NCBI GenBank assembly: GCA_964291625.2
Contig: OZ220090.1
Location: forward strand, 544,001 to 608,000
DNA: 64,000 nucleotides
Source of the DNA: Candidatus Latescibacterota bacterium
GTDB taxonomy: Bacteria > Latescibacterota > UBA2968 > UBA8231
Reading direction: 5' to 3'
This document shows positions 1 to 21,133 of the stretch, piece after piece. The position numbers were made by a program, and so were the translations under genes. The notes below the pieces were generated by a model, which saw only the letters and a program-made list of their open reading frames with translations, made no database searches and was not told the DNA's origin. How positions within the stretch are numbered: the stretch's first letter is position 1; each line of letters begins with the position of its first letter.

Positions 1-962
1 CCCGGCCGACGCCAGCCTTCCGCGTGGTCCCCTACATCCTCGAAGAGCTGCACGCGGCGGGCATCGACGACGACGGCATCACCATCATCTGCGCCCTGGC
101 CGCTCACCGGCCCATGACCCGGGACGACTTCCTCAAGAAGCTCGGCGCCGAGATCGTCGAGCGCTATCGCGTCGTCAACCACAACGCCTACGAGAACCTC
201 GAGTTCCTCGGGAACACGAGCCTCGGAGTGCCGGTCTTCGTCAACCGCGACCTGATGGCCTGCCAGGTGCGCATCGCGGCGGGCATGATCACGCCTCGCG
301 GCGGGATGTTCGGCGGCGGCGCCAAGCTGCTGATTCCCGGGGCCTGCGGCCAGCAGACGATTCTGCTCAACCACCGCTACGTCCAGGGAGAGGCCTTCCG
401 TCCCCATCTCGACGAGGTGGCGGGGATGGCCGGCGTCGATTACATCGTCAACCCGCTGCTGAACGAGGGTCTGGAGATCATGGGCCTCGTGGCCGGCGAC
501 CTGACCGCCGCCTTCGAGCAAGGCTGCCGATTGGGGGCCGAGCTCTACGCTACTCCCATGCCGGCGGCCGGCACGGTGGACGTGGGCATCTTCAGCGCCT
601 TCCCGAAGGACACCGAGCTGTGCCAGGCGGGGCTGGCCCTCGTGCCCCTCGGCAGCTGCCCCCACGACCCGATCGCCGAGGGCGGCACCGTCGTCATCGC
701 CAGCGCCTGCCCGGAGGGGCTCGGCTGGCACTCGGTCCTCGGCCCGGGGACCGCCCTGCGCGCCCCTCCGCAGCCGCCGGCCCACCGCACGCTGCTGTTC
801 TCGACGGGAGTGAACCCGTACGACTGCCAGGCCCTGTACGGCGAGCACGTCCGCCTGTTCCGGGAATGGGAGGACCTCATCGGCCAGTTGCAGGCCATCC
901 ACGGCGAAAGCCCCCGGGTGTCGGTCTTCCCCGCCGGGGCCCTGCAGATGGCCGCCACCTGA
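1..962 (+). CDS. LarA-family (nickel-pincer lactate racemase-like) protein, 5'-truncated by window edge
   Basis: Frame is open from position 3 (RPTP motif), then AAHRPMT, FGGGAKLLIPG and NH, matching the LarA RPTP / GTHR / GGxK / NH motifs. Confidence 0.8.
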   Translation, partial: RPTPAFRVVPYILEELHAAGIDDDGITIICALAAHRPMTRDDFLKKLGAEIVERYRVVNHNAYENLEFLGNTSLGVPVFVNRDLMACQVRIAAGMITPRGGMFGGGAKLLIPGACGQQTILLNHRYVQGEAFRPHLDEVAGMAGVDYIVNPLLNEGLEIMGLVAGDLTAAFEQGCRLGAELYATPMPAAGTVDVGIFSAFPKDTELCQAGLALVPLGSCPHDPIAEGGTVVIASACPEGLGWHSVLGPGTALRAPPQPPAHRTLLFSTGVNPYDCQALYGEHVRLFREWEDLIGQLQAIHGESPRVSVFPAGALQMAAT

Positions 963-986
963 GCACATGACAATGAGGCGGGAAGC

Positions 987-1763
987 GTGGCCCCACTGAA
1001 GTCCTTCGATCTCGATGGCCGGGTCGTGGCCGTCACCGGCGCCGGCCGCGGGATCGGCCGCACCATCGCTCTCGACGCGGTCCGCTCGGGCGCACGCGTG
1101 GCCATCGGCAGCCGGACGGTCAGCGAACTGGAGAGTCTCCAGGAGAGCATCGAGGCCATGGGGGGGGAGTGCTTCGCCCACTTCCTCGACGTGACCGACG
1201 TCGCCTCCATCGAGGCCTTCTTCGAGGGGGCGGACGCCCACTACGAGGGACTCCACGTCCTGGTGAACAACGCCGGCTACAACAAGCTCGGGAAGATCCT
1301 CGACTACGACGAGGATCTCTACGATCAGATCGTCGCTGCCAACCTCAAGAGCGTGTTCTTCTGCAGCCAGGCGGCGGCGAAGCGCATGATCGCCCGGGGG
1401 GTCCGCGGCAGCATCGTGAACATCTCCTCCCAGGCGGGGGTGGTGGGAGCGCCGGAGCGGGGACCCTATTCGGCGGCCAAGGGAGGGGTGAACAACCTGA
1501 CGCGCACGGCGGCCGCCGAATGGGCGGAGCACGGGATCCGGGTCAATGCCGTGGCCCCCACGGTGACCCGGTCGCCCCTGGCCCAGAGAGCCATGGAGGA
1601 CAGCCAGGCCTTCGCCGACGCGGTGAAGACCAAGAACCTCCTTCGCGGCGACCTGGCCGAGCCGGAGGAGATCTCCGCACCGGTGATCTTCCTGGCCTCC
1701 GATGCCGCCAGCATGGTCACCGGCCACGTTCTGGTGGTCGACGGGGGGTGGACCATCGTCTGA
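987..1763 (+). CDS. SDR family NAD(P)-dependent oxidoreductase
   Basis: TGAGRGIG, NNAG, YSAAK catalytic motif, C-terminal VDGG. Confidence 0.95.
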   Translation: MAPLKSFDLDGRVVAVTGAGRGIGRTIALDAVRSGARVAIGSRTVSELESLQESIEAMGGECFAHFLDVTDVASIEAFFEGADAHYEGLHVLVNNAGYNKLGKILDYDEDLYDQIVAANLKSVFFCSQAAAKRMIARGVRGSIVNISSQAGVVGAPERGPYSAAKGGVNNLTRTAAAEWAEHGIRVNAVAPTVTRSPLAQRAMEDSQAFADAVKTKNLLRGDLAEPEEISAPVIFLASDAASMVTGHVLVVDGGWTIV

Positions 1764-1806
1764 CGGCGGGTTCCACATGTCGCCGTCAAGCCGCGGTACC
1801 AGGCCT

Positions 1807-2946
1807 TCAGGGCCGCTCCGAGGCGCCTGGAGCGGTCTCCCGCAGTCTCTCCCCCTGCCAGCCTCGGCGCGCCTCCAGCAGCCCGTCCAGCTCCCCGACG
1901 GCGGAGGCCGTGGCGGACTGCGGATCCCTTGCCAGATGGGCGAGCAGCTCCACGAGGGAGGCGGCATCTTCCACGGCGACGGCTTCGGCCCTCAGCTTCT
2001 TCCCGCCGCGGTTGTGGTAGTTCTCCAGGGGCAGGGCCACCGCACCGGCCCTCAGGCCCGCCCGGCAAAGGGCCGTCGCTTCGCACGTTCCTCCATCCAT
2101 CAGCCGGCGCTGATACCGGAAGGCGGGCCGCTGCCTGCCAAGATCCTCGGCCGCCCCAGCCAGGGCGGCGGTGACCGCAGCGTCGAAGAGCCAGCGGCGG
2201 TCACCGACCCGGATCACGGGGCCGTCGCCGAGGGGGGCACCCGCCAAGCTGGAGGAGCATTCGATATTCACGTACAGGGGATTCCGGTCGAGGTGCCCGC
2301 CGTCGAGGGCGGCGAGCATCCCCCCGAAGCCGGTCTCCTCGGCCCGGGTCAGCAGAACGCCGATGCCTGGGGCCGGGTCGGCGCGCAGGGCCTCGAGGAC
2401 CGACAGGGCCACGGCCACGCCGGCCAGGTCGTCGCAGGCGCGGCCGGAGAGCCTTCCGCCGGACAGCTCGAAGCCGGGCAGATCCCAAGTTGCGAAGATT
2501 CCTCCCGCCTTGGCATCTGCAACCGGATCGTCCAGGCGCACTCGAAAGGCGGGCCGGCCGCCGGGGTCGCCCGGAGCACCCTCCTCCAAGTAGGCCAGCA
2601 CCCTCCCACGGGCGATGGGCTCGGTGGACTGGTGGTCGTGCACCAGCACGCCGGCCCCCCTGGTCAGCTCGGTGGGAATGCCGCCCAGGGAGTGGAAGAA
2701 CCAATCGCCGCCGTCGCCAGCGGCCAGTGCCAGCCCGGGGTGGTCGAGGTGAGCGGTGAGGACGATTCCCGGTGCTGCCGCGCCCAGACGCAGGTGGAGG
2801 TTTCCGAAGGGGTCGGACAGGCAGTGCAGATCGGGCCGCTCCGCCAAATACCGCTCCACCTCCGCCAGGACGAGGTGCTCGTGGAAGGGTGCGGTGGGAA
2901 TGGGGACGAATCGCCGGGCCACGTCCAGATAGAGATCGGCAAGCAT
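1807..2946 (-). CDS. M42/M20/M28-clan binuclear metallopeptidase/hydrolase
   Basis: AHLDH, ACDDLAG, RAEE, NIE and YHN metal/catalytic motifs all present. Confidence 0.8.
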   Translation of the reverse strand: MLADLYLDVARRFVPIPTAPFHEHLVLAEVERYLAERPDLHCLSDPFGNLHLRLGAAAPGIVLTAHLDHPGLALAAGDGGDWFFHSLGGIPTELTRGAGVLVHDHQSTEPIARGRVLAYLEEGAPGDPGGRPAFRVRLDDPVADAKAGGIFATWDLPGFELSGGRLSGRACDDLAGVAVALSVLEALRADPAPGIGVLLTRAEETGFGGMLAALDGGHLDRNPLYVNIECSSSLAGAPLGDGPVIRVGDRRWLFDAAVTAALAGAAEDLGRQRPAFRYQRRLMDGGTCEATALCRAGLRAGAVALPLENYHNRGGKKLRAEAVAVEDAASLVELLAHLARDPQSATASAVGELDGLLEARRGWQGERLRETAPGASERP

Positions 2947-3076
2947 TGGATACCGCCTGTTCCAGGGGGTCGTGGGGATAGGGTATCCGGAGGACGTCCG
3001 GGGTCAAGCGGATTGGTTCGGTGGAGACGGGGCGCCTACCTTGGTGCCGTTCCACCCGGTCGGGAGGCCCGGTTTC

Positions 3077-5233
3077 GTGAGACGGGACATACCACAGGAG
3101 TACAGCGACCACCTGGCCACGCGCCGGGAGCACGTGCTGGGCGGCGGCGGCGAGCGACTCTCCTTCCGCGCCTTCTGGGTCGGCGGCTTCCTCTCCTTCT
3201 TCCTCGCCGTGGGCGCGCCCTACGGCAACATGATCATCCGCGGCTCCTACATGGCCCTCGACTTCAGCACCCCGGGGGCGATTTTCCTCTTTCTGTTCCT
3301 CATCGGCCTCCTCAACTGCGCCTTCAAGCTCGCCCGCCACCCTGCGGTTGCCATCGGCCTCGCCGGCTCGGCCACGGCGGGATGGCTGATCGTCTACAGG
3401 ACGGCCATCACCGATCTCGACTTCTACTCCCCGGGTCTGATGCTGGCCACCTTCCTGGTCCTGACCACCTGGCTCAACCTGCCGGTGGTGCTCCGCGGCG
3501 GGAGCCTGGCCCTGAACCGATCCGAGCTGGTCCTGGTCTACGCCATGCTGCTCATCGTCTCCGCCCTGTGCACCATGGGGCTGGGCGAGCAGATCCTGCC
3601 CGTCATCACGGCGATCTTCTACTTCGCCTCGCCGGAGAACCAGTGGGCGGAGAAGCTCTTTCCCCACCTGCCCCAGCGGGCGATGGTGAACGACGGCACG
3701 GACAGCCGACTGTTCTACGAGGGACTCTCCGGTCCGGAGGAGGCGATTCCCTACGAGTCCTGGGTGGAGCCCCTCCTGTGGTGGGGGATCTTCCTGCTGG
3801 CCCTGTACGTGATGATGGTCTCGGTGGCCGTGATCCTCCGCCGCCAGTGGATGGAGCGGGAACGCCTGGCCTACCCGATCGCGCAGGTGGGCCTCTCGAT
3901 GATCCGCTCCGAGCACGCCGACCGGGCGGTGAACGGCTTCTTCAGGCGACCCCTCATGTGGTTGGGGGCGTCCCTGCCCCTGATCGTCGGCAGCCTGAAG
4001 GCCCTGAACCGCTACTACCCGGAAGTTCCGGTGGCGCCGACGCATTGGTTCCTGCCCTTCGTGGGATACGAGAGCCTGCAGATCACGATCAGCTTCGCCA
4101 TGCTGGGGTTCTCCTACTTCATCAACGCCAACATCGCCGCCGGCATCTGGTTCTTCCACCTGTTCTCGAAGGTGGAGAAGCAGGCCCTGCTTCTCACCGG
4201 CCTCCAGTCCACGCAGAAGATCAGCTTCGGAGTCTCCGACTATCCCTTCCTCGGCTACCAGGGAGTGGGGGCATTGCTGGCCATGGTGGTCGTCGGTCTG
4301 TGGGTCGGCCGCGAGCACTACCGCCGGGTGCTGCTCAAGGCCGCCGGCCTCGCTCCCGAGGTGCAGGACGAGGACGAGATCCTGTCCTACCGGGGCGCCG
4401 TGGCGGGGGCCGTGGGCGGCACCGCCCTCATGGCTGGATGGCTGTGGATCATGGGGACCCCCCTGTGGGTGGCCCTGCTCTTCATCGTCCTGGCCATCCT
4501 GATCTTCATCGGCATTACCCGGATCGTGACCGAAGCGGGACTGGCCGCCATCCGCTCGCCGATGATCGCCAGCGAGCTGGTGGTGCAGGGGATGGGCTCC
4601 TCCCTGGTCGGCCCCGCGGGAGTGATGAACCTCTCCCTGACCTACATCTGGGCCGCCGATATCCGCGTCTTCGTCATGGCCACGGCCTCCAACGCGTTGA
4701 AGATGATCGAGGAGATGGAGCCCCGGAACCGGCGCATCGTGTTCTGGGCCATGGTGGCGGCCATGTTCATCGGCGCCGCCGGATCCTTGTGGATGATCTT
4801 CCACATGGCCTACCGGCACGGGGGCATCAACCTGGCGAGCTGGTTCTTCCAGGGCCTGCCCCGGACCGCGTACGACGCAGCCCTGCGCAACATGGAGCCC
4901 GAGGGAACCTACTGGCCGGGTCTCGGCTTCTTCGGGGGCGGCGCCGCCGCCATGGTTGCCATGATGTGGCTTCGCCAGCGGCTGCCGTGGTGGCCCGTCC
5001 ATCCCATCGGCTTTCCCATCGGCGCCAACAGCATGATGAACCACGTCTGGTTCAACGTCTTCGTGGCCTGGCTGGTGAAGCGGACCGTGCTGCGCTACGG
5101 CGGCGCCAACGCCTACCACGGCAGCCAGCACTTCTTCCTGGGGCTGATCGCCGGCCAGGTCCTGTGCAACGGCCTGTGGCTGGTGATCGACTACTTCACC
5201 GGCAAGGTGGGCAACTCCATCTTCTGGGTGTGA
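3077..5233 (+). CDS. Polytopic membrane protein, OPT-like / DUF6785-DUF6784-type (paralogue 1)
   Basis: Many hydrophobic segments, QWMERERLAYPI and WWPVHPIG motifs. Start moved to GTG 3077 because GGGAGG lies upstream and the N-terminus then aligns with paralogue 2. Confidence 0.75.
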   Translation: MRRDIPQEYSDHLATRREHVLGGGGERLSFRAFWVGGFLSFFLAVGAPYGNMIIRGSYMALDFSTPGAIFLFLFLIGLLNCAFKLARHPAVAIGLAGSATAGWLIVYRTAITDLDFYSPGLMLATFLVLTTWLNLPVVLRGGSLALNRSELVLVYAMLLIVSALCTMGLGEQILPVITAIFYFASPENQWAEKLFPHLPQRAMVNDGTDSRLFYEGLSGPEEAIPYESWVEPLLWWGIFLLALYVMMVSVAVILRRQWMERERLAYPIAQVGLSMIRSEHADRAVNGFFRRPLMWLGASLPLIVGSLKALNRYYPEVPVAPTHWFLPFVGYESLQITISFAMLGFSYFINANIAAGIWFFHLFSKVEKQALLLTGLQSTQKISFGVSDYPFLGYQGVGALLAMVVVGLWVGREHYRRVLLKAAGLAPEVQDEDEILSYRGAVAGAVGGTALMAGWLWIMGTPLWVALLFIVLAILIFIGITRIVTEAGLAAIRSPMIASELVVQGMGSSLVGPAGVMNLSLTYIWAADIRVFVMATASNALKMIEEMEPRNRRIVFWAMVAAMFIGAAGSLWMIFHMAYRHGGINLASWFFQGLPRTAYDAALRNMEPEGTYWPGLGFFGGGAAAMVAMMWLRQRLPWWPVHPIGFPIGANSMMNHVWFNVFVAWLVKRTVLRYGGANAYHGSQHFFLGLIAGQVLCNGLWLVIDYFTGKVGNSIFWV

Positions 5234-5297
5234 GGGGCGGGATGCAGAAGAGCGTGAGGCGCCTTCGAAGCGCACCTGGGGGTTCCGGGACTCGGCC

Positions 5298-7478
5298 ATG
5301 TCCGGCCGGCAGCAGGCGGACCCGGTGAACAGGACGATCCCGCAGGAGTACGGCGAGCGCCTGGCCGAGCGCCGGGAGCGCGTCCTGGGCGGCGGCGAGC
5401 GCCTCTCCTTCCGCGCCTTCTGGGTCGGCGGCTTCCTCTCCCTCTTCCTGGCCGTGGGCGCCCCCTACGGCAACATGATCCTCCGCGGGTCCTTCATGGC
5501 CATGGACTTCAGCACCCCGGGGGCGATCTTCCTCTTCCTCTTCCTCATCGGCCTTCTCAACTGCGCCTTCAAGCTCGCCCGGCAGCCCGCCGTGGCCCTC
5601 GGCCTGACGGCTTCGTCCACGGCGGCGTGGCTGGTGGTCTACAGGCCGGCCCTCGGCGACCTCGACTTCTACTCCCCGGGCCTGATGATGGCCACCTTCC
5701 TGGTCCTGACCACCTGGCTCAACCTGCCCGTGGTGCTCCGCGGCGGCAGCCTGGCCCTGAATCGCTCCGAGCTGGTCCTGGTCTACGCCATGCTGCTCAT
5801 CGTCTCGGCCTTGTGCACCATGGGCCTGGCCGAGCAGATCCTCCCCATCATCACGGCGATGTTCTATTTCGCCACCCCGGAGAACCAGTGGGCGGAGAAG
5901 CTCTTTCCCCACCTGCCGGAGGGGGTGATGGTGAACGACGGCACGGACAGCCGCCTGTTCTACGAGGGCCTCTCCGGTCCCGAGGAGGCGATTCCATACG
6001 CCTCCTGGGTGGAGCCCCTCCTGTGGTGGGGGGTCTTCCTGCTGGCCCTGTACGTGATGATGGTCTCGGTGGCGGTGATCCTGCGCCGCCAGTGGATGGA
6101 GCGCGAGCGCCTGGCCTACCCGATCGCCCAGGTGGGCCTCGCCATGATCCGCTCCGAGCACGCCGACCGGGCCGTGAACGACTTCTTCAAGCGACCCGTC
6201 ATGTGGCTGGGGGCGGCCCTGCCCCTGGCCCAGGGCAGCTTGCGGGGGCTGAAGTTCTACGAAGTGCCGGTGCCCACGACGCGCCTGGAGTGGAATCTCC
6301 CCTTCATCGGCCTCCAGAGCCTGCATCTGAGCGTCAACTTCGCCGTCCTCGGGTTCTCGTATTTCATCAACGCCAACATCGCCGCCGGCATCTGGTTCTT
6401 CCATCTCCTCTCGACTGCGGAAAAGCAGTTGCTCATCCTCACCGGGCTGCAGTCGTCCCGGAAGATCGGTCTCGGCGTCTCCGACTACCCCTTTCTCGGG
6501 TACCAGGGGGTGGGGGCGCTGCTGGCCATGGTGGTGGTCGGCCTGTGGGTGGGCCGCGAGCACTACTGGCGAGTCCTGCGCAGGGCCGTCGGACTGGCCC
6601 CCGAAGTCCGCGACGACGACGAGATCCTGTCCTACCGGGGCGCCGTGGCCGGGGCCCTGGGAGGCACCGCCGTCATGACGGCCTGGCTGTGGTACATGGG
6701 GACCCCCATGTGGGTAACCCTGCTCTTTCTGCTCGTGGCGGTGCTGATCTTCATCGGAATCACGAGGATCGTGACCGAGGCCGGCCTGGCGGTCGTCCGC
6801 GGGCCCATGATCGCCGGCGACCTCGTGGTGCAGGGAGTCGGTTCCTCCCTGATCGGCCCCGCGGGGGTGGTGAACCTCTCCCTGGCCCACGTCTGGGCCG
6901 CCGACATCCGTGTCTTCGTCATGGGCACCGCCTCCAACGCCCTGAAGATGATCGAGGAGATGGAGCCCCGGAACCGCCGCACCGTGTTCTGGGCCATGAT
7001 CGCCGCCCTCTTCATCGGCGCCGCCGGCTCCCTGTGGATGATCTTCCACATGGCCTATCTCCACGGGGCCCTCAACCTGAACGGCTGGTTCTTCCGGGGG
7101 CTGCCCCGCTACGCCTACGATGCGGCCCTGCGCAACATGGAACCCCATGGGGTTCACTGGCCCGGGCTCGGCTTCTTCGGCGCCGGGGCCGCCGCCATGG
7201 TCACCCTCATGTGGCTGCGCCAGCGGCTGCCCTGGTGGCCCGTCCACCCCATCGGTCTACCCATCGGCGCCACGCCCATGATGAACCGCCTCTGGTTCAA
7301 CGTCTTCGTGGCCTGGGTCGTCAAGCGAGGCGTTCTGCGGTACGGCGGCGCCACCGGCTACCAGAAGAGTCAGCCCTTCTTTCTCGGGTTGATCAGCGGC
7401 CAGGTCCTGTGCAGTGGAGGCTGGCTGGTGATCGACTACTTCACAGGCGCAGTGGGGAACTACCTTTACGAGATATGA
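5298..7478 (+). CDS. Polytopic membrane protein, OPT-like / DUF6785-DUF6784-type (paralogue 2)
   Basis: Collinear and largely identical to 3077..5233. Alternative start GTG 5325. Confidence 0.8.
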   Translation: MSGRQQADPVNRTIPQEYGERLAERRERVLGGGERLSFRAFWVGGFLSLFLAVGAPYGNMILRGSFMAMDFSTPGAIFLFLFLIGLLNCAFKLARQPAVALGLTASSTAAWLVVYRPALGDLDFYSPGLMMATFLVLTTWLNLPVVLRGGSLALNRSELVLVYAMLLIVSALCTMGLAEQILPIITAMFYFATPENQWAEKLFPHLPEGVMVNDGTDSRLFYEGLSGPEEAIPYASWVEPLLWWGVFLLALYVMMVSVAVILRRQWMERERLAYPIAQVGLAMIRSEHADRAVNDFFKRPVMWLGAALPLAQGSLRGLKFYEVPVPTTRLEWNLPFIGLQSLHLSVNFAVLGFSYFINANIAAGIWFFHLLSTAEKQLLILTGLQSSRKIGLGVSDYPFLGYQGVGALLAMVVVGLWVGREHYWRVLRRAVGLAPEVRDDDEILSYRGAVAGALGGTAVMTAWLWYMGTPMWVTLLFLLVAVLIFIGITRIVTEAGLAVVRGPMIAGDLVVQGVGSSLIGPAGVVNLSLAHVWAADIRVFVMGTASNALKMIEEMEPRNRRTVFWAMIAALFIGAAGSLWMIFHMAYLHGALNLNGWFFRGLPRYAYDAALRNMEPHGVHWPGLGFFGAGAAAMVTLMWLRQRLPWWPVHPIGLPIGATPMMNRLWFNVFVAWVVKRGVLRYGGATGYQKSQPFFLGLISGQVLCSGGWLVIDYFTGAVGNYLYEI

Positions 7479-10400
7479 GCGGACCACACTCCCGACCCGC
7501 CCTGGCGCTCATGGCCTGGCTGCAGCTCTCTGCCGCGGCCCTTGCGGACGGCCCCGACCTGTGGGCCATCCCCGACGAGGGGCAGCGTCTGCGGGCGAGC
7601 GTGGAGTACCTCTCCGGCCTCGGCTCCCGCATCAGCGGACACGAGGGCGGGAGGCGCGCCGGGGACTGGATCGAGGGCCAGCTGTCGGCCCTTGACCTGG
7701 GGTCCGTGCATCGGGAGACCTTCCCCATCACCGTGCCGGTCGAGCTGGGCGGGCGCAGCCGCCTGGAGGTCGTCGACACCGGTGAGGAGTTCGACATGCA
7801 CGGGCTGTGGCCCAACGGCCCGCGCACTACCACGACCCCGCCCGAAGGCCTGGAGGGCCAGCTCACCTGGGCCGGCAACGGCGAGTACACCGACTTCGAG
7901 GGCCGGCAGCTGCACGGCCGCGTGGTGCTGATGGAGTTCAACACCTGGGATCGCTGGGTGCGGCTGGCGGCGCTCGGCGCCAGGGCGGTGATCTTCATCG
8001 AGCCCGCGGAGACTTCCTATCCCCAGACGGAGGACAAGAGCCTCATCGTTCCCGTCGATGTGCCGCGGTTCTGGATCGGCTCGGAGGCGGGACGGCAGCT
8101 CCAGCGGAGACTGGAGGGAGGAGCCGAGATCGGCGTCCGTCTGCACAGCCGGATGGACTGGGTCGAGCGGCCTTGCGCGAACCTCTGGGTGGAAGTCACC
8201 GGCGCCGACACGGCCCGGGCGCCGCAGCGGATCGTCGTGCAGAGCTACTACGACGGGACCTCGATCGTGCCCTCCCTGGCGCCCTCGGCCGAGGCTTCCA
8301 GCGGCGCCGCGGCGATGCTGGAGCTGGCCCGCCACCTGCGGGACCATCCGCCCGCACGGACGGTGGTCCTCCTGCTCACGGGCTCCCACTTCCAGGACCG
8401 GGCTGGAATCGTCGACTTCATCGAGCGCCACACCCGCAAGTCGGACTACTTCGCTCCCTTCACGGACTCCATGGCCGTCGATCTCTACGTCGGCCTCGAC
8501 CTGTCCACCAAGACCGACCAAGTGGCCATCTGGAACAACACCACCAGTTTCGACCTCAAGCGGTTCTTCGTCCCCTTCGGGCGGCGCTACACCCGGTACG
8601 CCGAGGAGACGGCAGCCGAGCTCGGAAGGGCGGGAGAGCCGCTGCTGCTCAACGGCATCAGCCCCATCCGGGGAATGGACTGGTCGACCTTCGTCCCCGA
8701 CGGCGCCTTCGTCGACACCCGCCTGGCCATGCTCGCCGGCCAGGTGGCCCTCTCCTTCGTCACCGCCCACGACGCCCGCTTTCCGCTGGCCACCCCACTC
8801 GACACTCCCGGCCGGATGAATCAGGACAACCTCCTGAGCCAGTCGCGGTTCCTCAAGGGCGTGCTGTCCCGGTCCTTCGACGACCCGGACCTGTTCACGG
8901 GTCTGGAGGACTTCGGCCCCGTGCTCAAGGACCAGCTGCGCACCCACACCGTTCGCGTACGGGCCTTCCCGCGCCGCAGCCAGATCCCCGACCGGACCGT
9001 GGCCGACGCCCTGGTGATGGTGGGGGCGGGAACTCACAAGGGCCTGAACATGAGCCGGTCCTACCTCACCGACGAGCTGGGCGACGTCACCGTGTCGGGG
9101 CTGGTGGTGGGAGCCACCTCGGTGGTGGCCTATGTCCTCGATCCCGAGACGGGGAGGGTCGTCTACGCTCCGGACCTGAGCGAGCGCGGCCAGAAGCACC
9201 ACGGCAAGCCCCTGGCCAGCGGCCGCATGAACTGGAGCATCCGCTGGAACAAGGACAGCAAGCCCCTCGTCGTCTTCCCGAGCAGGCAGAGGACCCTCTT
9301 CGGGCTGACCCATCCCAACCAGCTCGTGGGGCTGGCCTCCCTGAAGATGATCGGCAGCGGCGGCATCCCGCCCCGGCAGTTCGGGTACGCCTTCGGACGC
9401 ACCCTCAGCAGCAACCTCTGCGTCGTCTTCGCGCCCCAGGAGTCGGCCGTCGAGGACCCCCGCCTGAAGATGCTCTTCGGCGACATGCTGCTGCTCAACA
9501 GCCCGGGGGGGGTATCGGAAAAGGAGGCCAAGGGCACGGGGTACGACCTGGCGGTGGACGACCTGTTGCCCTCGGAGCTGTTCGCCCTGCGCGACACCTG
9601 GAGGCTCAACGACGCTCGCCTGGCCACGATGCGCTCCCACGCCATCGAGAACCAGCGCATCACCCGCCTGCACGAGGCCGGCCGCCGGTTCCTCGCCAGG
9701 GCCGAGGACTCGTTGCGGGAGGGCCGCTGGCGGGACTACGTCGCCGAGGTCCGGTCCGGGCTGGGGGTGACCCTGAAGGCCTATCCCCAGGTGAAGGCCA
9801 CCCTCAACGACGTGATCAAGGGGATCGTGTTCTTCCTGGCCCTGGTAGTGCCCACCGCCTTCTTCGGGGAGCGCCTGCTCTTCGCCGCCTCCGACATCCG
9901 CTGGCAGATCGGGGGGTTCTTCGTCCTCCTGCTGGTCGTCTGGATCCTGATCTCCCAGGTCCATCCGGCCTTCGACATCGCCCACCCCCTGATCATCCTG
10001 CTGGCCTTCTTCATCATGGCCATGGCCGTCTTCGTCCTGGGAATGGTATCGAGCCGGTTCAACCGGTTCATCAAGGAGTATCAGGCCGAGAGGGCCAAGG
10101 TCCACGAGACCGACATCAGCCGCGCCAGCGCCGCCTACGCCGCCTTCATGCTCGGCATCTCCAACATGCGCCGACGCCGGCTGCGCACCGGGTTGACCCT
10201 GCTCACCCTGACCTTGCTCACCTTCACGGTCCTCTCCTTCACCTCCGTCCGGCCCGAAGTGTGGTACTTCGTCTTTCCCCTCCGCCACGAGGGTTCCTAC
10301 ACGGGAGCCCTGATCCGCGACCGCGGCTGGAACTCCCTGCCGGAGACCACCCTGGAGTACGCCCGTTCCCACTTCGAGGAGCACGGCCTCGTGGTCCCGC

Positions 10401-11920
10401 GGAACTGGTACATCACCTACGACGGCGAGGAGAAGAAGTACACCGAGATCCGGCACGACGGCCTGATGGTGCGCGCCACGGGCCTCCTCGGCCTCGCCTC
10501 CCAGGAGCAGCGGGTGACCGAACTGGCCTCGACCCTCTCGGCGGGGAGCTGGTTCGCGGATGGCGACGAGTCGACCTGCCTGATCTCGGAGGGAATGGCG
10601 GAAGGTCTGGGAATCGGCTCCGGCGAAGTGGGGGAGGCCGAGGTGCAGGTCTTCGGCAAGAGGCTGACCGTGGCCGGGATCTTCTCCGCCGATGCCTTCA
10701 ACGAGGTGCGCGATCTCGACGACGAGCCCCTCAGTCCGGCGGACTTCCAGCTGTCGAGCATGCAGGCCCTGGGTCCCGCGGAAGGGCCGCAGATGACCGT
10801 GCAGGAGGAGGAGGAGACGTCAGAGGTGCGGCCCTTCGTCCACCTCGACCCCGCCAACGTGCTCATCCTGCCCTACGAGGCGCTGAAGGTCGCCTTCGGT
10901 GACCTGCGCTCCGTGGCCATCCGCTTCGACGAGGGCGCTCCGGCTCAGGAACTGATCGAGGAGTTCCTGCAGCGCATTTCCGGAACCGTCTTCGCCGGCC
11001 TTCCGGACGAGGAAGGCCGCATCGATGTCGTCTCATACACCTCTCTGGGGGGCACCTCCGTCGAGGGGCTGGCGGCCCTGATCGTGCCGATGCTGATCGC
11101 CGCCCTCATCGTCCTCAACACGATGATGGGCGCCGTGTACGAACGCTTCCGGGAGATCGGCATCTACTCCTCCGTGGGGCTGGCGCCGATGCACATCGCC
11201 CTGCTCTTCATCGCCGAGGCCTGCGTGTACGCGGTCATGGGGGTGACCCTGGGCTACCTCATCGGCCAGATCCTCGGCCGCGGGCTGGTGCACTTCGACC
11301 TGCTGGGGGGCATGAACCTCAACTACTCCTCCTTCGCCGCCATCCTCGCCGCCTGCATGGTCATGGGGGTCGTGCTGCTGTCCACCATCTACCCGGCCCG
11401 CGTCGCCTCCCGCTCGGCCGTTCCCGACACGGTCCGGCGCTGGCGGCCGCCGCCGCCCGACGGCGACCGCTGGGAATTCGACTTCCCCTTCATGGTGGGC
11501 CGGAGCGAGGTGGTGGGGATCTGCGGGTTCCTGGCCAACTTCTTCAGCGCCTACAGCGAGGAGTCGATCGGCGACTTCTACGCCGACAAGGTGCGGATCA
11601 CCACCGGGGAGACGCCGGCGGGACCTGAGTACGCCGTGCAGCTGCTGTTGTGGCTGGCCCCCTTCGACATGGGCGTGAGCCAGTTCGTGCAGATCGAGCT
11701 GGCGCCCACGTCCACGCCCGGGGTCTGCGACGTGCAGATCTACATCCACCGGGTCAGCGGCCAGGACACCTACTGGCAGCGGGTCAACCGCCGCTTCGTC
11801 AACCACCTGCGCAAGGAGTTCCTGATCTGGCACACCCTCGACGCGGAGTCCAAGGCCTTCCACGATCAGAGCGCCCGAGAGCGGATGGCGGCTGAGGAGG
11901 CAGGGGAGGTCACAGCGTAG
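7475..11920 (+). CDS. 1481-aa signal-peptide protein: PA + degenerate M28 peptidase-like ectodomain fused to a MacB/FtsX-type permease
   Basis: ATG 7475 overlaps the upstream TGA (ATGA). Signal peptide ends AALA-DG. M28-like SYYDG...APSAEASSGAAAMLELAR; SNMRRRRLRTGLTLL and VYERFREIGIYSSVG are MacB/FtsX motifs. Confidence 0.8.
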   Translation: MSGPHSRPALALMAWLQLSAAALADGPDLWAIPDEGQRLRASVEYLSGLGSRISGHEGGRRAGDWIEGQLSALDLGSVHRETFPITVPVELGGRSRLEVVDTGEEFDMHGLWPNGPRTTTTPPEGLEGQLTWAGNGEYTDFEGRQLHGRVVLMEFNTWDRWVRLAALGARAVIFIEPAETSYPQTEDKSLIVPVDVPRFWIGSEAGRQLQRRLEGGAEIGVRLHSRMDWVERPCANLWVEVTGADTARAPQRIVVQSYYDGTSIVPSLAPSAEASSGAAAMLELARHLRDHPPARTVVLLLTGSHFQDRAGIVDFIERHTRKSDYFAPFTDSMAVDLYVGLDLSTKTDQVAIWNNTTSFDLKRFFVPFGRRYTRYAEETAAELGRAGEPLLLNGISPIRGMDWSTFVPDGAFVDTRLAMLAGQVALSFVTAHDARFPLATPLDTPGRMNQDNLLSQSRFLKGVLSRSFDDPDLFTGLEDFGPVLKDQLRTHTVRVRAFPRRSQIPDRTVADALVMVGAGTHKGLNMSRSYLTDELGDVTVSGLVVGATSVVAYVLDPETGRVVYAPDLSERGQKHHGKPLASGRMNWSIRWNKDSKPLVVFPSRQRTLFGLTHPNQLVGLASLKMIGSGGIPPRQFGYAFGRTLSSNLCVVFAPQESAVEDPRLKMLFGDMLLLNSPGGVSEKEAKGTGYDLAVDDLLPSELFALRDTWRLNDARLATMRSHAIENQRITRLHEAGRRFLARAEDSLREGRWRDYVAEVRSGLGVTLKAYPQVKATLNDVIKGIVFFLALVVPTAFFGERLLFAASDIRWQIGGFFVLLLVVWILISQVHPAFDIAHPLIILLAFFIMAMAVFVLGMVSSRFNRFIKEYQAERAKVHETDISRASAAYAAFMLGISNMRRRRLRTGLTLLTLTLLTFTVLSFTSVRPEVWYFVFPLRHEGSYTGALIRDRGWNSLPETTLEYARSHFEEHGLVVPRNWYITYDGEEKKYTEIRHDGLMVRATGLLGLASQEQRVTELASTLSAGSWFADGDESTCLISEGMAEGLGIGSGEVGEAEVQVFGKRLTVAGIFSADAFNEVRDLDDEPLSPADFQLSSMQALGPAEGPQMTVQEEEETSEVRPFVHLDPANVLILPYEALKVAFGDLRSVAIRFDEGAPAQELIEEFLQRISGTVFAGLPDEEGRIDVVSYTSLGGTSVEGLAALIVPMLIAALIVLNTMMGAVYERFREIGIYSSVGLAPMHIALLFIAEACVYAVMGVTLGYLIGQILGRGLVHFDLLGGMNLNYSSFAAILAACMVMGVVLLSTIYPARVASRSAVPDTVRRWRPPPPDGDRWEFDFPFMVGRSEVVGICGFLANFFSAYSEESIGDFYADKVRITTGETPAGPEYAVQLLLWLAPFDMGVSQFVQIELAPTSTPGVCDVQIYIHRVSGQDTYWQRVNRRFVNHLRKEFLIWHTLDAESKAFHDQSARERMAAEEAGEVTA

Positions 11921-11923
11921 ACC

Positions 11924-14617
11924 ATGGCCGAAAACGGAAAGCAGAGCCTGCGCCAGCGGCTGCGGAGGTCGCAGTGGCAGGAGGTGGAGGAGTACCGCGC
12001 CCTGCTGGAGCCGGCCGAGCAGTTCGAGAGCGGCTTCACGATGCGCACCATCATCGGCGTCCTCTTCATCTCCCTGGTCATGACCCCGGGGGAGATGTAC
12101 CTGGGCCTGGTCACGGGCGGGGGCATCGGCGCTGCGGCCCAGTGGGTGACGGTGATCCTCTTCCTCGAGGTGGCCAAGCGGTCCTTCACCTCCCTGCGCC
12201 GGCAGGAGATCTACCTGCTGGTCTACGTGGCCTCGGCCCTGGTGGCCCGGGAGGAGGGGGCCTTCCTCGACCTGCTCTTCCGGCAGTACTTCGTGCGCTC
12301 CGCCGAGGCCGAGATGTTCGGCATATCCAAGCTGCTGCCGTTCTGGTACGTGCCCCATCCCGAGTCGCCGGCCCTGGCGGCGCGCACCTTCCTGCACCGC
12401 GACTGGCTGTGGCCCATCGCCCTGCTGATCATGGGCACCATCGTCGGCCGCGTCAGTTGGTTCACCTCGGGGTACCTGCTCTTCCGCCTGACCTCCGACC
12501 GCGAGCGCCTGCCCTTTCCCACGGCGCCCATGTCGGCTCTTTCAGCCATGGCCCTGGCCGAGGAGAGCGGCGGCGAGAAGGAGACCTGGAAGTGGCCCGT
12601 GTTCTCCCTGGGAGGGGTCATGGGCGCCGTCTTCGGCGTCATCTACGTGGGCATCCCTACCCTGACCGAGGTCCTGCAGGGGACGAAGGTCACCCTTATC
12701 CCGATCCCCTGGTGGGACCTGACGCCGTACCTGGGCAACCTCCTGCCGGCCGCGCCCGTGGGGATCACCCTCCACCTCGGGATCATCTTCGGTGGCCTCC
12801 TGGCCCCGTTCTGGGGGATCATCGGGTCGAGCCTGGGCGTGATTGTGCACACGGCGGTAAGCCCGTGGCTGCACGCCCATGGCATGCTTCCGGGCTGGTC
12901 CCTGGGGATGGGCCTCATCGAGACGCAGATCGTCACCGGCATCGACTTCTGGAGGGCCTTCTCCATCGGCATCACCATCGCCGTGACGGTCATCAGCTTC
13001 TACCAGCTCTTCGCCACCGCCCGTCAGCGCCGCATGGCGACCCGCGACGAGTTCCTCGGGGAGAAACGCGAGTACCCGAGGACCTGCGTCCACGACGGCT
13101 GCAACGCCCCCTCGCAGGTCCGCGGCTACTGCATCAAGCACCTGGGCCGGGGCGACTTCAACCTCTGGGTCTGCGTCGTCCTGTTCGCCATGGCCGCCCT
13201 CTACCCCATCGTGCTCGCCAAGACCCTCTTCCCGTCCCTGGTGACCACGGGTCTGCTCATCGTGTTCTTCGGCATCGCCTTCGTGTACGCGCCGATCATG
13301 TCCTTCGTCTCGGCTCGGCTCGACGGGCTCATCGGCCGCGAGGTGTCGATCCCGTACATCAACGAGGCGATCATCTTCCTCACCGGGTACCGCGGCGTCG
13401 ACATCTGGTTCGTGCCCTTCCCGACCCGCAACTACGGGGGCCACGCCGAGGGCTTCCGCGTCGTCGAACTCACGGGCATGCGCTTCACCAGCCTGTTGCA
13501 CGCCGAGCTCTTCATGCTGCCCATCGTCTTCGGCGTGAGCCTCATGTACTGGAGCTTCCTGTGGCGCCTGGGGCCCATCCCCTCGGAGAGCTATCCCTAC
13601 GCCCAGCTCATGTGGCCCCTGCAGGCCTTCAACCAGGCCCTGTTCTACTCCAGCACCATGTACAACAAGATGTGGCGGGCGGGAGAGGAGGTGGACGGGC
13701 GCCGCGTCGATGGCGGGGAGGTGGTCTGGAGCCCGTCCAACCTGCAGGACAGGGAGTGGTGGTACTGGCGGGTGCGGGTCACGGACGACGTGGACGTGCC
13801 CGACGCGGAGAGGCGGGAGTACGGCCCTTGGTCGAAGACGGGGTTCTTCTACACCAACTTCGGAGACGGAACCCCGCCGTCCGACGTGCCGGAGCGCGTC
13901 TTCGACCTGCTCGCCGACGCCGAGCGCAGGGCGGCGATGAAGAGTCAGCAGTCCCGCGCTCCCCCTGAGCCGGGCACAGGGCACACGGCGGAGCTGCTGT
14001 GGCCCGCCCCCGGCGAGGTCGTGGACACGGCGAACCCGAACTTCCACGCCCGGGTGACGGGGGTGCCCGACTCGCTCGAGCTCTACTTCGAGGTGGACAG
14101 ACTGCCCACCTTCGACGGGGAGTTCCTGCAGCGCTCCACGGACTGGCCGCTCATGTTCCAGGCCTTGTGGCGGGATCTTCGCTACACAGGCGACCGGCGG
14201 GACAACGACGGCGACGGCCAGATCGACGAGGAGCTCTACAACCTCAAGGACGACGACGGCGACGGACGGACCGACGAGGACTACCACCATCCCCTCGACG
14301 GCTGGAAGTGGCCGATCATGCTCTTCGGCGCCGGCTTCGGGCTGGTCATGTACTTCGGCCTCTCCTTCCTCGGCCTGCCCGTCTTCCTCATCTGGGGTTA
14401 CGTGCAGAGCGTTCTGGGGGTGCCCACCAGTCTGCTGCCCCAGCTCGCCGGGGCCCTGCTCGCCCGGTTCTACTTCTGGAAGCGCTACGGCCGGCAGGAG
14501 TGGCGCCGGTACGCCATGGTGCTCACCGTCGGCTTCGGCGTGGGCATGTCCCTCATCGGCATGTTCTGCGCCGCCCTCGCCATGATCAGCAAGGCGGTCT
14601 CGGCCCTGCAGTACTGA
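11924..14617 (+). CDS. OPT-superfamily-like transporter with inserted soluble domains
   Basis: GFTMRTII N-terminus, ERLPFPTA motif, many TM helices, insertions CxxxxC..CxxH, YWRVRV..GPWS and DNDGDGQIDEE. Confidence 0.75.
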   Translation: MAENGKQSLRQRLRRSQWQEVEEYRALLEPAEQFESGFTMRTIIGVLFISLVMTPGEMYLGLVTGGGIGAAAQWVTVILFLEVAKRSFTSLRRQEIYLLVYVASALVAREEGAFLDLLFRQYFVRSAEAEMFGISKLLPFWYVPHPESPALAARTFLHRDWLWPIALLIMGTIVGRVSWFTSGYLLFRLTSDRERLPFPTAPMSALSAMALAEESGGEKETWKWPVFSLGGVMGAVFGVIYVGIPTLTEVLQGTKVTLIPIPWWDLTPYLGNLLPAAPVGITLHLGIIFGGLLAPFWGIIGSSLGVIVHTAVSPWLHAHGMLPGWSLGMGLIETQIVTGIDFWRAFSIGITIAVTVISFYQLFATARQRRMATRDEFLGEKREYPRTCVHDGCNAPSQVRGYCIKHLGRGDFNLWVCVVLFAMAALYPIVLAKTLFPSLVTTGLLIVFFGIAFVYAPIMSFVSARLDGLIGREVSIPYINEAIIFLTGYRGVDIWFVPFPTRNYGGHAEGFRVVELTGMRFTSLLHAELFMLPIVFGVSLMYWSFLWRLGPIPSESYPYAQLMWPLQAFNQALFYSSTMYNKMWRAGEEVDGRRVDGGEVVWSPSNLQDREWWYWRVRVTDDVDVPDAERREYGPWSKTGFFYTNFGDGTPPSDVPERVFDLLADAERRAAMKSQQSRAPPEPGTGHTAELLWPAPGEVVDTANPNFHARVTGVPDSLELYFEVDRLPTFDGEFLQRSTDWPLMFQALWRDLRYTGDRRDNDGDGQIDEELYNLKDDDGDGRTDEDYHHPLDGWKWPIMLFGAGFGLVMYFGLSFLGLPVFLIWGYVQSVLGVPTSLLPQLAGALLARFYFWKRYGRQEWRRYAMVLTVGFGVGMSLIGMFCAALAMISKAVSALQY

Positions 14618-14624
14618 CGGTCCT

Positions 14625-15695
14625 TCACGGCCGCGGACGGTCCCCGGGACCTGCCGGGGCCCGGGGTCCCTCCTCCCGGCGCGAGCGGCGCCGCTGCAGG
14701 AAGGCCGGCAGTCCGACGGCCAGGTAGGTGAGGTTGGCCAGGGCGTGGACGACGGTGGCGCAGGCCATGGCCGCCGCCAGGGGAACGGCGAAGAGGACGT
14801 GGAGGGAGTAGCCGTAGAAGTAGTGGTACGGTCCGGTGCCCGCAGGCGCCGGGATCACCACCCCGATCGATGACACGGCCATGATGACGAGGGCCTCCGC
14901 CGTCCCGAGGGACCAGGGGGGGCCATCGAAACCGAAGGCCACGTAGGACTGGTAGATGATGAGGATGTAGGCCAGGTTCAGCAGGATGGAGCTGACCACG
15001 ACCTCGGCCACTGCGGAGGCAGACCGGAGAGCCACCAGCCCCTGGACGAAACTCCGGAGCATGTCTCCCAGACGGGAAGCCAGACCTTCCGACAGCCGAC
15101 CCGTCATGGTTTCCACGACTCGGATGCCGCGGTCTCCAAAGGCGTATGCGCCTGCCATCGCGGCGGCGACGGCAACGCAGGCGGCCAGGACACAGAGCTT
15201 GGCTTCCGCCAGGGACAGGGTGAAGGTGGTTCCCCGGACCTCGGTCTCCCATGGGAAGAGAGCGGCCACCCGTTCCGGAACCACCGCCAGGGAGAGGGCG
15301 AGGAGCGAAGCCAGGCACAGCAGGTCCACGGCCCGCTCCACCACCACCGTGCCGAGGACGGCGCTGAGGCTTGCGCCTCGTCGCCACTTGAGGCTCAGGG
15401 CGCGCGCTGCTTCGCCGGCCCGCGGCAGGGCGATGTTGGCGCTGTAGCAGACGCCCAGGGACAGGGTGGCGTCGAGGACGGTCACCGTGGGGGCCACCGG
15501 GCGCAGCAGCACGATCCAGCGCCAGCCGCGCAACACCAGGGTGAGCACTGTCGTGGCCGCCATGGCCGCCATCCAGCCCGGCGAGACCGCCCGCGCCGCC
15601 GCCCACAAGGCGCCGGCGTCGATGCCCCGGAAGGCCCAGTAGAGGAACAGGGCCATCAGACCGGGACCGACGACGTATCTGGAGAGGAACTTCAC
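14625..15695 (-). CDS. Lysylphosphatidylglycerol-synthase TM / UPF0104 flippase-like membrane protein
   Basis: RGWRW, NIALPRAGEAAR, TVVVER, PAPAGTGPYH motifs; start placed at GTG 15695. Confidence 0.85.
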   Translation of the reverse strand: MKFLSRYVVGPGLMALFLYWAFRGIDAGALWAAARAVSPGWMAAMAATTVLTLVLRGWRWIVLLRPVAPTVTVLDATLSLGVCYSANIALPRAGEAARALSLKWRRGASLSAVLGTVVVERAVDLLCLASLLALSLAVVPERVAALFPWETEVRGTTFTLSLAEAKLCVLAACVAVAAAMAGAYAFGDRGIRVVETMTGRLSEGLASRLGDMLRSFVQGLVALRSASAVAEVVVSSILLNLAYILIIYQSYVAFGFDGPPWSLGTAEALVIMAVSSIGVVIPAPAGTGPYHYFYGYSLHVLFAVPLAAAMACATVVHALANLTYLAVGLPAFLQRRRSRREEGPRAPAGPGDRPRP

Positions 15696-15732
15696 AGGCG
15701 GGCGCCGCGGAGGGGGAGCCCCGCGTGGCCGG

Positions 15733-16134
15733 TCAGGTGTAGACCTGGTGGGGATCGAAGATGCGTTCGTCGACGATTTCCCACCGCTGCTCATCGCGGT
15801 TCCATCGCCGGTAGTAGCAGGAGTGGTACCCCCGGGCACAGGCCGCCACCTCCTGGTCGACCCGGACCTCGAGGGAGTTGCCGTCGCAGTTGAGGCGGAT
15901 CTCCCGCACTCTCTGCACATGTCCCGACTCGACGCCCTTCTTCTGCACCCTTCCCTGCGAGCGCCGGTACAGGTGGACCAGGCCGCTTTCGAGGGTCAGG
16001 TGGAGGGCCTCCTCGTTCAGGTAGCAGAGCACCAGGAGCCGGCCCGTCGACCAATCGGTGACCGCCGCCGGCACCAGGCCGTCGGGCCCGAAGTCGATCT
16101 CCGCGGCGATGCTGCTCTTCACGCCCATGGTCAC
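15733..16134 (-). CDS. hisI: Phosphoribosyl-AMP cyclohydrolase (HisI)-like protein with degenerate active site
   Basis: DGLVPA, KGVESGHVQRV, NCDGN, ACARG..SC; HisI fold motifs with key substitutions. Confidence 0.75.
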   Translation of the reverse strand: MTMGVKSSIAAEIDFGPDGLVPAAVTDWSTGRLLVLCYLNEEALHLTLESGLVHLYRRSQGRVQKKGVESGHVQRVREIRLNCDGNSLEVRVDQEVAACARGYHSCYYRRWNRDEQRWEIVDERIFDPHQVYT

Positions 16135-16871
16135 TCCAGGAGATCCTCGGCCACGTCGGCCACGAGGGTGCCGGCATCCTCTCCCTCACAGATCCTCTGC
16201 ACGGTGCCGGTCTCGGTGACGTCGAAGAGGTGCAGGGGAAGGCCGTTGTCCCTCGCCAGGATGACGGCGGTCTGGTCGATGACCCGCAGGTCGCGGCTCA
16301 GGATCGTGTTGTAGTGCATGCGCCGGTACATCCGCGCCCGGGGATCGATCTTCGGATCGGCGGTGAACACCCCCCGGGCGCCGTTCTTGGCGTAGAGGAT
16401 GGCGTTGGAGCGCGTCTCCAGGGCGCGTTGCACGGCCGGGTAGTCCGTGGTCAGGTACGGCTGGCCCAGCCCCCCTGCGAAGATGACCACGTATCCCTTC
16501 TTCAGGTGCTGGATCGCCCGCAGACGGATGTAGGGTTCGGCCACCATGTTGATCTCGATCGCCGTCATGACGCGCACCTCGACGTCGCCCCCGGACTTGG
16601 ACGACAGCACGCCGCGCAGCATGAGGCTGTTCACCACCGTGCCCATCATGCCGATGTTGTCGGCCTCGGCCCGTTCGATGCCCCATTGGGAGGAGAGGTC
16701 GCCGCGGAAGATGTTGCCGCCGCCGATGACGACCGAGACCTGCACCCCCCCGGCATGAAGGCGAAGCACCTCGTTGGCGATGTGATCGAGAGCGGCGTGA
16801 TCGAAGCCGTACTCCTTGCCGCCGGAGACCGCCTCGCCGCTGAGCTTGAGGGTTACGCGCCGGTAGCGCAT
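16131..16871 (-). CDS. pyrH: UMP kinase
   Basis: KLSGE, GGGNIFRG, ADNIGM, TTD, ADPK, DQTA motifs; ATG 16871 preceded by AAGGA. Confidence 0.9.
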   Translation of the reverse strand: MRYRRVTLKLSGEAVSGGKEYGFDHAALDHIANEVLRLHAGGVQVSVVIGGGNIFRGDLSSQWGIERAEADNIGMMGTVVNSLMLRGVLSSKSGGDVEVRVMTAIEINMVAEPYIRLRAIQHLKKGYVVIFAGGLGQPYLTTDYPAVQRALETRSNAILYAKNGARGVFTADPKIDPRARMYRRMHYNTILSRDLRVIDQTAVILARDNGLPLHLFDVTETGTVQRICEGEDAGTLVADVAEDLLE

Positions 16872-21132: not shown

Positions 21133-21133
21133 G

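Follow-up and report, generated by a model that had tools for sequence, protein, structure and literature searches.

A cluster of four genes in a 64-kb stretch of the genome of an uncultured, sponge-associated Candidatus Latescibacterota bacterium appears to join two transporter superfamilies in one membrane system. The third gene, B, is predicted to encode the permease component of an ABC system of type VII, the type with the MacB/LolC/FtsX fold, and, as judged from its neighbourhoods, is obligately paired with proteins of the OPT superfamily, to one of which it is fused in one subfamily. The parts come from known superfamilies; their combination is undescribed. The genome (G000) measures 5.9 Mb with 69% G+C, and the stretch analysed, called the window below, corresponds to C2:544001-608000; coordinates without a contig or locus prefix are window positions. 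ORF (open reading frame) listing and translation place the four genes, tightly packed on the + strand, at 3077-14617:

3077..5233, + strand: A1, DUF6785+DUF6784 polytopic protein assigned to the OPT superfamily
5298..7478, + strand: A2, tandem paralogue of A1 (81% identity)
7475..11920, + strand: B, 1481-aa fusion of a putative pseudo-peptidase with a predicted type VII ABC (MacB/FtsX) permease
11924..14617, + strand: C, divergent 897-aa protein assigned to the OPT superfamily

An earlier sequence-only reading of the window had described four co-oriented, tightly coupled genes with no regulator or substrate-binding protein among them, and both statements hold for these four genes. Direct reading of the sequence shows that the stop codon of A2 overlaps the start of B as ATGA (7475-7478) and that B and C are separated by 3 bp (11921-11923). 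A codon-usage gene caller trained on the same genome selects exactly these four frames among many spurious ORFs. The A1 frame is open from 2972, with alternative starts at 2972 and 3044; the likeliest start is the GTG at 3077, which has GGGAGG 9 nt upstream.

G000 carries 5 B, 5 C and 27 A-type genes, and every B gene (5/5) shares its locus with a C gene: three pairs are directly adjacent, one locus reads B-A-C, and in one B-A is separated from C-A by eight genes. In other genomes, 50 related loci were compared, and in 45 of them B immediately precedes C. Of the five exceptions, two offer less than 700 nt upstream, two show the interrupted layout and one has no B in 4.4 kb. Within the 45, an A gene stands upstream of B in 31 and downstream of C in 3 more, is absent from 5 and was untestable in 6. 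The 50 loci comprise related genomes and paralogous sets and are therefore not independent. B was found in 138 of 151 sampled Latescibacterota genomes and in 13 of 14 families, the missing one being family f10 (0/13 genomes); the system is present in three to five divergent copies per genome. Co-occurrence in other genomes, for which the sequence-only reading had proposed a neighbourhood survey, is thus found. The interrupted B-A...C-A layout of G000 is also seen in loci L043 and L044; its eight-gene block (C1:4224683-4233906; L012:683-9906) holds creatininase-like, FG-GAP/ASPIC, TPR, DUF4920, small MacB_PCD-FtsX permease and ABC ATPase genes.

A search for longer A homologues recovered 24 clusters of B-A fusion proteins, 1667-2161 aa long, some of them about 2090 aa. 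These carry FtsX, usually M28 or MacB_PCD, plus DUF6785, and 23 of the 24 also carry DUF6784. All eight fusions inspected consist of B, full-length or N-terminally cut, followed directly by A, with the cytoplasmic tail of B leading straight into A; one of them, from a one-contig genome, occupies one ORF of 2102 aa. For C, no longer, fused forms were found, which carries little weight. An unrelated metagenome contig of unknown origin (L113) sets a Pfam-positive OPT protein (58.8 bits) beside a 1497-aa protein with PA, M28, MacB_PCD and FtsX, whose C-terminal domain is likewise that of B; the metagenome scan, run with a single-protein query, gave 2 loci, and the range beyond Latescibacterota rests on this one contig. 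The fusions, the conserved adjacency and the gene overlap together make a physical B-OPT complex likely. The sequence-only reading had postulated a hetero-oligomeric complex handling large peptides or glycopeptides. Its B-OPT association gains support from the adjacency in 45/50 loci, the translational coupling and the fusions; this support does not extend to a peptide or glycopeptide substrate. The same observations bear on the notion that four independent transporters merely lie side by side. A-type genes do stand alone 22 times in G000, but the ATGA overlap, the 3-bp gap and the B-C adjacency speak against mere juxtaposition and the B-A fusion proteins contradict it, so that we regard it as very improbable.

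The B protein divides into five conserved parts, which follow a signal-peptide-like N-terminus:

7547..8413, + strand: B residues 25-313, PA and M28 aminopeptidase-like ectodomain with degenerate catalytic residues (family profile against PDB)
8414..9826, + strand: B residues 314-784, conserved ectodomain region, no known family
9827..10048, + strand: B residues 785-858, three extra transmembrane (TM) helices ahead of the MacB unit (hydropathy)
10193..11389, + strand: B residues 907-1305, MacB-type unit with TM1, putative periplasmic core domain and TM2-TM4 (FtsX match)
11390..11917, + strand: B residues 1306-1481, conserved 176-aa cytoplasmic C-terminal domain, no known family

The fusion of an ectodomain with a MacB/FtsX permease, proposed from sequence alone for this 1481-aa protein, is confirmed by several kinds of match. 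Pfam FtsX (PF02687) matches residues 1201-1313 with 41.4 bits (cut-off 25.5), and among PDB sequences the best agreement is with MacB (5lil, E 8e-11 over 1121-1302), with further matches to YtrF, LolC and FtsX chains. MacB_PCD passes in one B paralogue (28.7 bits vs 27) and in the distant homologue P0297, and stays below its cut-off in the B of the window. Hydropathy gives an N-out, C-in topology with 7 TM helices, a basic cytoplasmic linker between the three extra helices and the MacB-type unit, and a 277-residue periplasmic loop between TM1 and TM2 of that unit. Both the three extra helices and an ERxREIG coupling-helix motif (columns E1223, R1224, R1226, E1227 and I1228) are conserved in 27 B homologues, the motif being invariant. 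The ADOP model TIGR03434 scores 17 bits on B against a cut-off of 622.3, and B has one FtsX unit, not a duplicated one.

For the ectodomain (residues ~23-313), the family profile matches the PA-domain M28 aminopeptidases YwaD (6hc6, E 5e-13) and 2ek8 (E 7e-12), and a 27-sequence profile also finds Nicalin (7tm3, E 1.4e-4) and, weakly, the transferrin receptor (E about 0.05). Pfam recognizes Peptidase_M28 in two B paralogues and, over 1-184 of 193 positions, in P0297; PA is likewise matched among the B paralogues and the distant homologue. In the alignment with YwaD, however, the metal-binding His is replaced by Tyr, the bridging Asp by Glu and the Glu-Glu pair by His-Phe, while the later ligands lie beyond the alignable part. 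The same positions are degenerate in all five B paralogues of G000; P0297 keeps His-x-Asp and has His-Tyr in place of Glu-Glu. Because the catalytic His, Asp and Glu-Glu are replaced, the ectodomain is best read as a pseudo-peptidase. The M28/PA-like homology noted by the sequence-only reading therefore stands, for a domain that proves to be catalytically degenerate. LysM domains occur in 19% of one cluster of B homologues.

The two remaining parts of B gave no match to Pfam (321-780 for the mid-region, and the tail) or, as profiles, to PDB sequences. The mid-region was considered as a repeat of M28 or of the periplasmic core domain and rejected (hhalign probability 0.1-0.5%), as was the tail as a degenerate nucleotide-binding domain (NBD; probability 0.1%). 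The tail is conserved in P0297.

A degenerate peptidase fused to a permease raises the possibility of hydrolase control, in which the dead M28 domain of B would switch an active extracellular hydrolase while A and C import the products. FtsEX, which acts through the catalytically inactive EnvC, provides a precedent; the degeneracy of the M28 residues extends to every one of the five paralogues, and true peptidases are encoded nearby, an M42-like one beside the operon and an M20 one near a paralogous locus. The module, however, contains no conserved secreted hydrolase gene, and the M42-like neighbour has no obvious export signal, although this protein was not given a dedicated look. We consider such control quite improbable.

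The partners of B were identified by a chain of comparisons. A1 and A2 are full-length DUF6785+DUF6784 members by Pfam hidden Markov models, both above the gathering score: DUF6785 (cut-off 25) gives 377.7 bits (E 1e-112) for A1 and 371.6 bits (E 7e-111) for A2, and DUF6784 (cut-off 26.4) gives 101.7 bits (E 2.8e-29) and 99.7 bits. The sequence-only reading, which had named these two families for checking, called A1 and A2 near-identical; that goes too far, since 582 of 716 residues (81%) are identical. They are tandem-duplicate paralogues, and the nearest two relatives, L038 and L046, share the duplication. For C, neither Pfam nor NCBIfam gives a match, BLASTP finds no match between A1 and C, and neither A nor C reaches the cut-off of Pfam OPT (PF03169); the highest direct score, 22 bits against a cut-off of 25.8, comes from the C-terminal end of a C paralogue.

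The link is made by intermediates. C has 898 relatives among 50%-identity representatives (phmmer, E<=0.001), of which a more distant set, the O group, consists of proteins of ~630 aa that lack C residues ~586-796. Pfam OPT matches 18 of 29 O-group proteins at E<=0.001, the best with 64.2 bits over positions 99-620 of 623. By hhalign, the O group aligns with C (probability 100%, E 1.4e-95) and with the 27 A paralogues (probability 98.5%, E 1.9e-15, 567 columns); A against C directly is weak, with a probability of 73% or 35% depending on the alignments, and the ERLx[FY]P motif falls inside the alignment. Since A and C both align full-length with the OPT-matching O group, the designation OPT-like holds for A1, A2 and C, which by transitive homology are divergent polytopic proteins of the OPT superfamily. 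The profiles of A, C and the O group found no match among PDB sequences, and strict hydropathy gives only 8-9 strong segments in A and C. Features within the A1 and C proteins are:

3860..3877, + strand: ERLAYP motif of A1 (translation)
12503..12520, + strand: ERLPFP motif of C (translation)
13079..13141, + strand: C residues 386-406, zinc-finger-like motif Cys-x4-Cys ... Cys-x2-His with weak Zf_WRKY19 matches
13679..14311, + strand: C residues 586-796, insert of ~210 aa without counterpart in the ~630-aa relatives (phmmer matched stretches)

Both the OPT-like nature of all three polytopic proteins and their common ERLx(Y/F)P motif had been claimed from sequence alone, and both are upheld. The motif reads ERLAYP in A1 and A2 and ERLPFP in C, and the two forms align in profile comparisons; its E, R and L are invariant in 12 A paralogues, and L196, P197, F198 and P199 of C are invariant in 15 homologues. 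The zinc-finger-like loop of C, where Zf_WRKY19 scores E 0.059 (E 0.0011 in homologues P0122 and P0125), is rich in Lys and Arg (10 K/R) and probably cytoplasmic, and its motif is conserved in paralogues and homologues. The insert has no Pfam match. By eye it contains two acidic DxDxDG-like loops, and many C homologues have one or two PDZ domains in the same place.

The sequence-only reading had found no ATPase. This is correct for the cluster and the window, which contains 0 of the 73 ABC_tran matches of the genome; for the system as a whole it probably does not hold, given an intact orphan ATPase elsewhere in G000 and a similar ATPase near A-B-C in relatives. Most of the G000 ATPases closest to MacB-type NBDs adjoin FtsX genes, and one, g1665, is an HlyD-linked ATPase adjoining an ADOP array. 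That array, at C1:2197234-2226175, consists of about a dozen duplicated FtsX (ADOP-like) genes with a truncated ATPase fragment inside, and the HlyD-linked ATPase lies 8.7 kb downstream. The orphan, g4291, is a 278-aa LolD/MacB-type ATPase at C2:809660-810496, about 255 kb from the cluster, in which every ABC motif is intact; it lies between dehydrogenase genes and uvrB and has no permease neighbour.

Homologues of g4291 (53-58% identity) are found, by coordinates, about 3 kb upstream of the B gene and on the same strand in 8 genomes of family f3. All four f3 loci fetched have the order ATPase-(tRNA-Phe)-A-B-C, and this ATPase has no other permease beside it. The best g4291 match in f2 and f3 genomes is the B-adjacent ATPase, while family f10, which lacks B in 13/13 genomes, has only weaker matches. 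These comparisons make g4291 the leading candidate for the motor, and we think it somewhat more probable than not that an ATPase acting in trans powers B. In the four f3 genomes a stretch of ~220 nt between the ATPase gene and tRNA-Phe (L087:3205-3425 and its counterparts in L088-L090) shows conservation in each of the six frames; Rfam gives no match to it at the gathering score, and it may represent a regulatory region or an RNA not yet described.

Several observations weigh against a dedicated motor of this kind. Four of the five B-C loci of G000 lack an ATPase within tens of kb, and at the fifth an inserted small MacB-like permease comes with its own ATPase. No LolD/MacB-type ATPase lies within 10 kb in any of the 45 closest B-C loci. 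The ATPase of family f2 is 5-8 kb away, and in both f2 and f3 a tRNA-Phe gene of opposite orientation separates the ATPase from A, which in f3 puts the ATPase outside the operon; f2 and f3 are moreover related, so that the linkage amounts to about one evolutionary event. The best G000 match of the B-adjacent ATPase is g1390, not g4291, and g1390 pairs with a short FtsX protein and has its own 79-81% orthologue in those genomes. A neighbor-joining tree of the ATPases (100 bootstraps; the 15-aa row f1_G055_x in it is meaningless) has three clades, with that of g4291 outside the other two and a bootstrap of 56 at their joint node, too little to fix the sister pair or to establish orthology. In G011, finally, the ATPase encoded near A-x-B-C belongs with g1390 and is itself paired with a short FtsX protein.

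Other ATPase-like matches, near loci L032, L036 and L049, are TOBE-type or weak and were set aside as not MacB-type. A 234-aa short FtsX-domain protein and a LolD-like ATPase are encoded at C1:1882586-1884104 (L095:4586-6104), inside a glycosyltransferase/RmlD cluster, and the same pair is found 1.4 kb downstream of A-x-B-C in G011; the short protein might be a heterodimer partner for B, or unrelated.

The scarcity of nearby ATPases is also what an ATPase-independent system would show. B would then, in this lineage, be a passive receptor or scaffold: its pseudo-peptidase ectodomain would bind the substrate, its MacB-like unit and cytoplasmic tail would do no more than anchor or regulate the OPT-like permeases, and these would carry out all energised transport with the proton gradient. 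No ATPase is encoded in the window or by four of the five own loci, none of the right type occurs at the 45 closest loci, and the distant contig L113 has none within 15 kb; the conserved 176-aa cytoplasmic domain of B could replace the NBD contact, and in the fusions the tail of B runs straight into A. On the other hand, the invariance of ERxREIG across 27 homologues is what a docking NBD would lead one to expect, although the motif may be structural; G000 does have an intact orphan ATPase of the appropriate subfamily, and relatives place such an ATPase near A-B-C. We hold a motorless B to be unlikely.

Our preferred reading, which we advance tentatively and short of calling it probable, is that A1, A2, B and C form one membrane machine of Candidatus Latescibacterota in which a type VII module, powered by ATP, loads the OPT-like permeases. 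The motor would be an ABC ATPase encoded elsewhere, with the orphan g4291 as candidate. B would act like other type VII ABC proteins, in which cytoplasmic ATP hydrolysis moves periplasmic domains (PMC12646458); mechanotransmission would shift the periplasmic domains of B. The dead-peptidase/PA domain would bind without cutting, and the periplasmic domains would capture the substrate and pass it to the OPT-like permeases for transport over the inner membrane, driven by the proton gradient. Different substrates would be handled by the several divergent sets of paralogues in each genome. A bolder version of this reading, in which B-OPT is a new composite transporter class that loads or gates proton-driven OPT permeases inside a single complex (a single polypeptide where B and A are fused) by means of a mechanotransmission module with a dead-peptidase receptor, and is the main route by which Latescibacterota take up peptide-bearing polymers, seems doubtful at present. 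If true, no earlier case would be known of a mechanical, primary-active ABC module that acts through a secondary transporter.

On weak evidence, the substrate is most likely peptide-bearing: B has peptidase-like and PA domains, some of its homologues have LysM domains, and PDZ inserts occur in homologues of C. The surroundings of the A-type genes weigh against this. DUF6785 is present above the Pfam cut-off in 27 copies in G000 and in none of 14 control genomes (examples in G000 are C1:378507-380501, C1:1759715-1761673 and C2:38543-40513). Of the 19 regions that contain the 22 stand-alone A-type genes, about 12 have glycan or sugar-acid genes within two genes (DUF4838, FG-GAP/ASPIC, PcRGLX, CBM9, GlcNAc 2-epimerase, lactonase, MR_MLE and LacI) and just 3 have peptidase genes. 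The stand-alone DUF6785 proteins may be the oligosaccharide or sugar-acid permeases of the phylum.

The recurrent neighbours of the system in relatives, which are LPG synthase-like, PspA and YbjN proteins, also count against a feeding role and hint at envelope upkeep. B and an ATPase might accordingly extract a lipid, lipoprotein or other hydrophobic molecule out of the inner membrane in the manner of LolCDE or YbbAP-TesA, with the OPT-like proteins as exporters or flippases. LPG_synthase_TM and YbjN/CesT-like genes each occur at 21 of 56 loci and PspA at 19, the family is near-universal in the phylum, and the known type VII systems (PMC12646458) serve the envelope, not import. Three to five divergent copies per genome and the PDZ and LysM inserts look instead like substrate diversification, and the neighbour families recur in related genomes, perhaps through shared synteny only. 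To our knowledge the characterised OPT members are importers, which also counts against export. We judge a role in envelope maintenance improbable, and uptake through the B-OPT machine remains our preferred reading. Downstream of C in relatives (L016-L064), the YbjN/CesT-like and PspA/IM30 genes are joined by one for a small DnaJ-domain protein (16 loci) and by DUF350, DUF4178 and spermidine-synthase-like genes; the window has none of these neighbours.

The cluster in the window is flanked by two genes of opposite orientation, given here as context only:

1807..2946, - strand: divergent neighbour, M42/M20-like peptidase gene
14625..15920, - strand: convergent neighbour, LPG_synthase_TM protein gene

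The M42/M20-like peptidase family is found upstream in 17 of 56 related loci. An Rfam scan of positions 1-17000 gave no match, a promoter scan found 0 sigma-70-like promoters, and none of the 7 terminator-like sites found lies at the operon end. Sponge metagenomes contain the locus, and contigs of one metatranscriptomic library match parts of A1 and of B as well as the A2/B junction (7394-8351); the flanks are covered too, and DNA carry-over is possible. Farther along the window, at 19837-23845 on the - strand, are genes for the TRAP transporter proteins DctM, DctQ and DctP and a TAtT (T-component) protein; next come a predicted aminopeptidase gene (PF10023) and one for a TPR protein. A paralogous B-C locus has in its vicinity (L013:375-1646 and 2704-3489; C2:977375-980489) a PPS_PS archaeal-type phosphopantothenate synthetase domain, a ComA phosphosulfolactate synthase and an ankyrin-repeat protein.

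We found no functional description of such a system, in agreement with the sequence-only reading. A literature search combining Latescibacteria, OPT, FtsX and Peptidase_M28 returned nothing relevant, the main text of a sponge Latescibacterota genome paper does not, by passage search, mention OPT, FtsX, oligopeptide or peptidase, and we found no paper that names DUF6785 or DUF6784 or describes their function. The present assignments offer a first functional frame for these two families, placed with OPT and present in 27 copies in G000, and for a protein family with members in 138 of the 151 genomes sampled from this uncultured phylum, which lives in sponges and sediments. The natural B-A fusions of ~2090 aa are ready targets for cryo-electron microscopy and for tests of the orphan ATPase.

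Among known systems, the ADOP proteins (TIGR03434) resemble B in being FtsX-type permeases encoded without an adjacent ATPase; B differs in its single FtsX unit, its peptidase-like ectodomain and its OPT partners. The ectodomain itself recalls nicalin and the transferrin receptor, whose dead M28 ectodomains act as binding modules; nicastrin has another catalytically dead M28/PA ectodomain. The profile of B matches Nicalin and, weakly, the transferrin receptor, and like them B is M28-like without the catalytic set, but it is bacterial and fused to an ABC-type permease, and by analogy its ectodomain may have a binding role. A and C are homologous to proteins matched by the Pfam model of the OPT/Yellow-Stripe-like transporters (PF03169) over nearly the full extent of that model, and share E-[RK]-L-x-[FY]-P with them. 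They differ in falling below the Pfam OPT cut-off, in having no PDB sequence match, in the 210-aa insert and zinc-finger-like loop of C, and in being coupled to a type VII ABC permease.

The type VII ABC systems (MacB, LolCDE, FtsEX-EnvC, YbbAP-TesA and YtrF) are the nearest relatives of B. In these systems, which include FtsEX-EnvC and YbbAP-TesA, cytoplasmic ATP hydrolysis moves periplasmic domains (PMC12646458). B shares with them the FtsX domain, the four-helix unit, the periplasmic loop between TM1 and TM2 and the coupling-helix motif, and like them it is tied to a periplasmic enzyme-like module. What sets B apart is that a dead M28/PA module forms one chain with the permease, that it has gained three TM helices and a novel cytoplasmic tail, and that no ATPase gene lies beside it here. 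Its constant partner, moreover, is an OPT-superfamily protein, to which it is sometimes fused, and we found no such partner in the literature. Type VII ABC systems drive periplasmic adaptors, hydrolases and chaperones; a constant and sometimes covalent OPT partner would represent a new working mode for both families.

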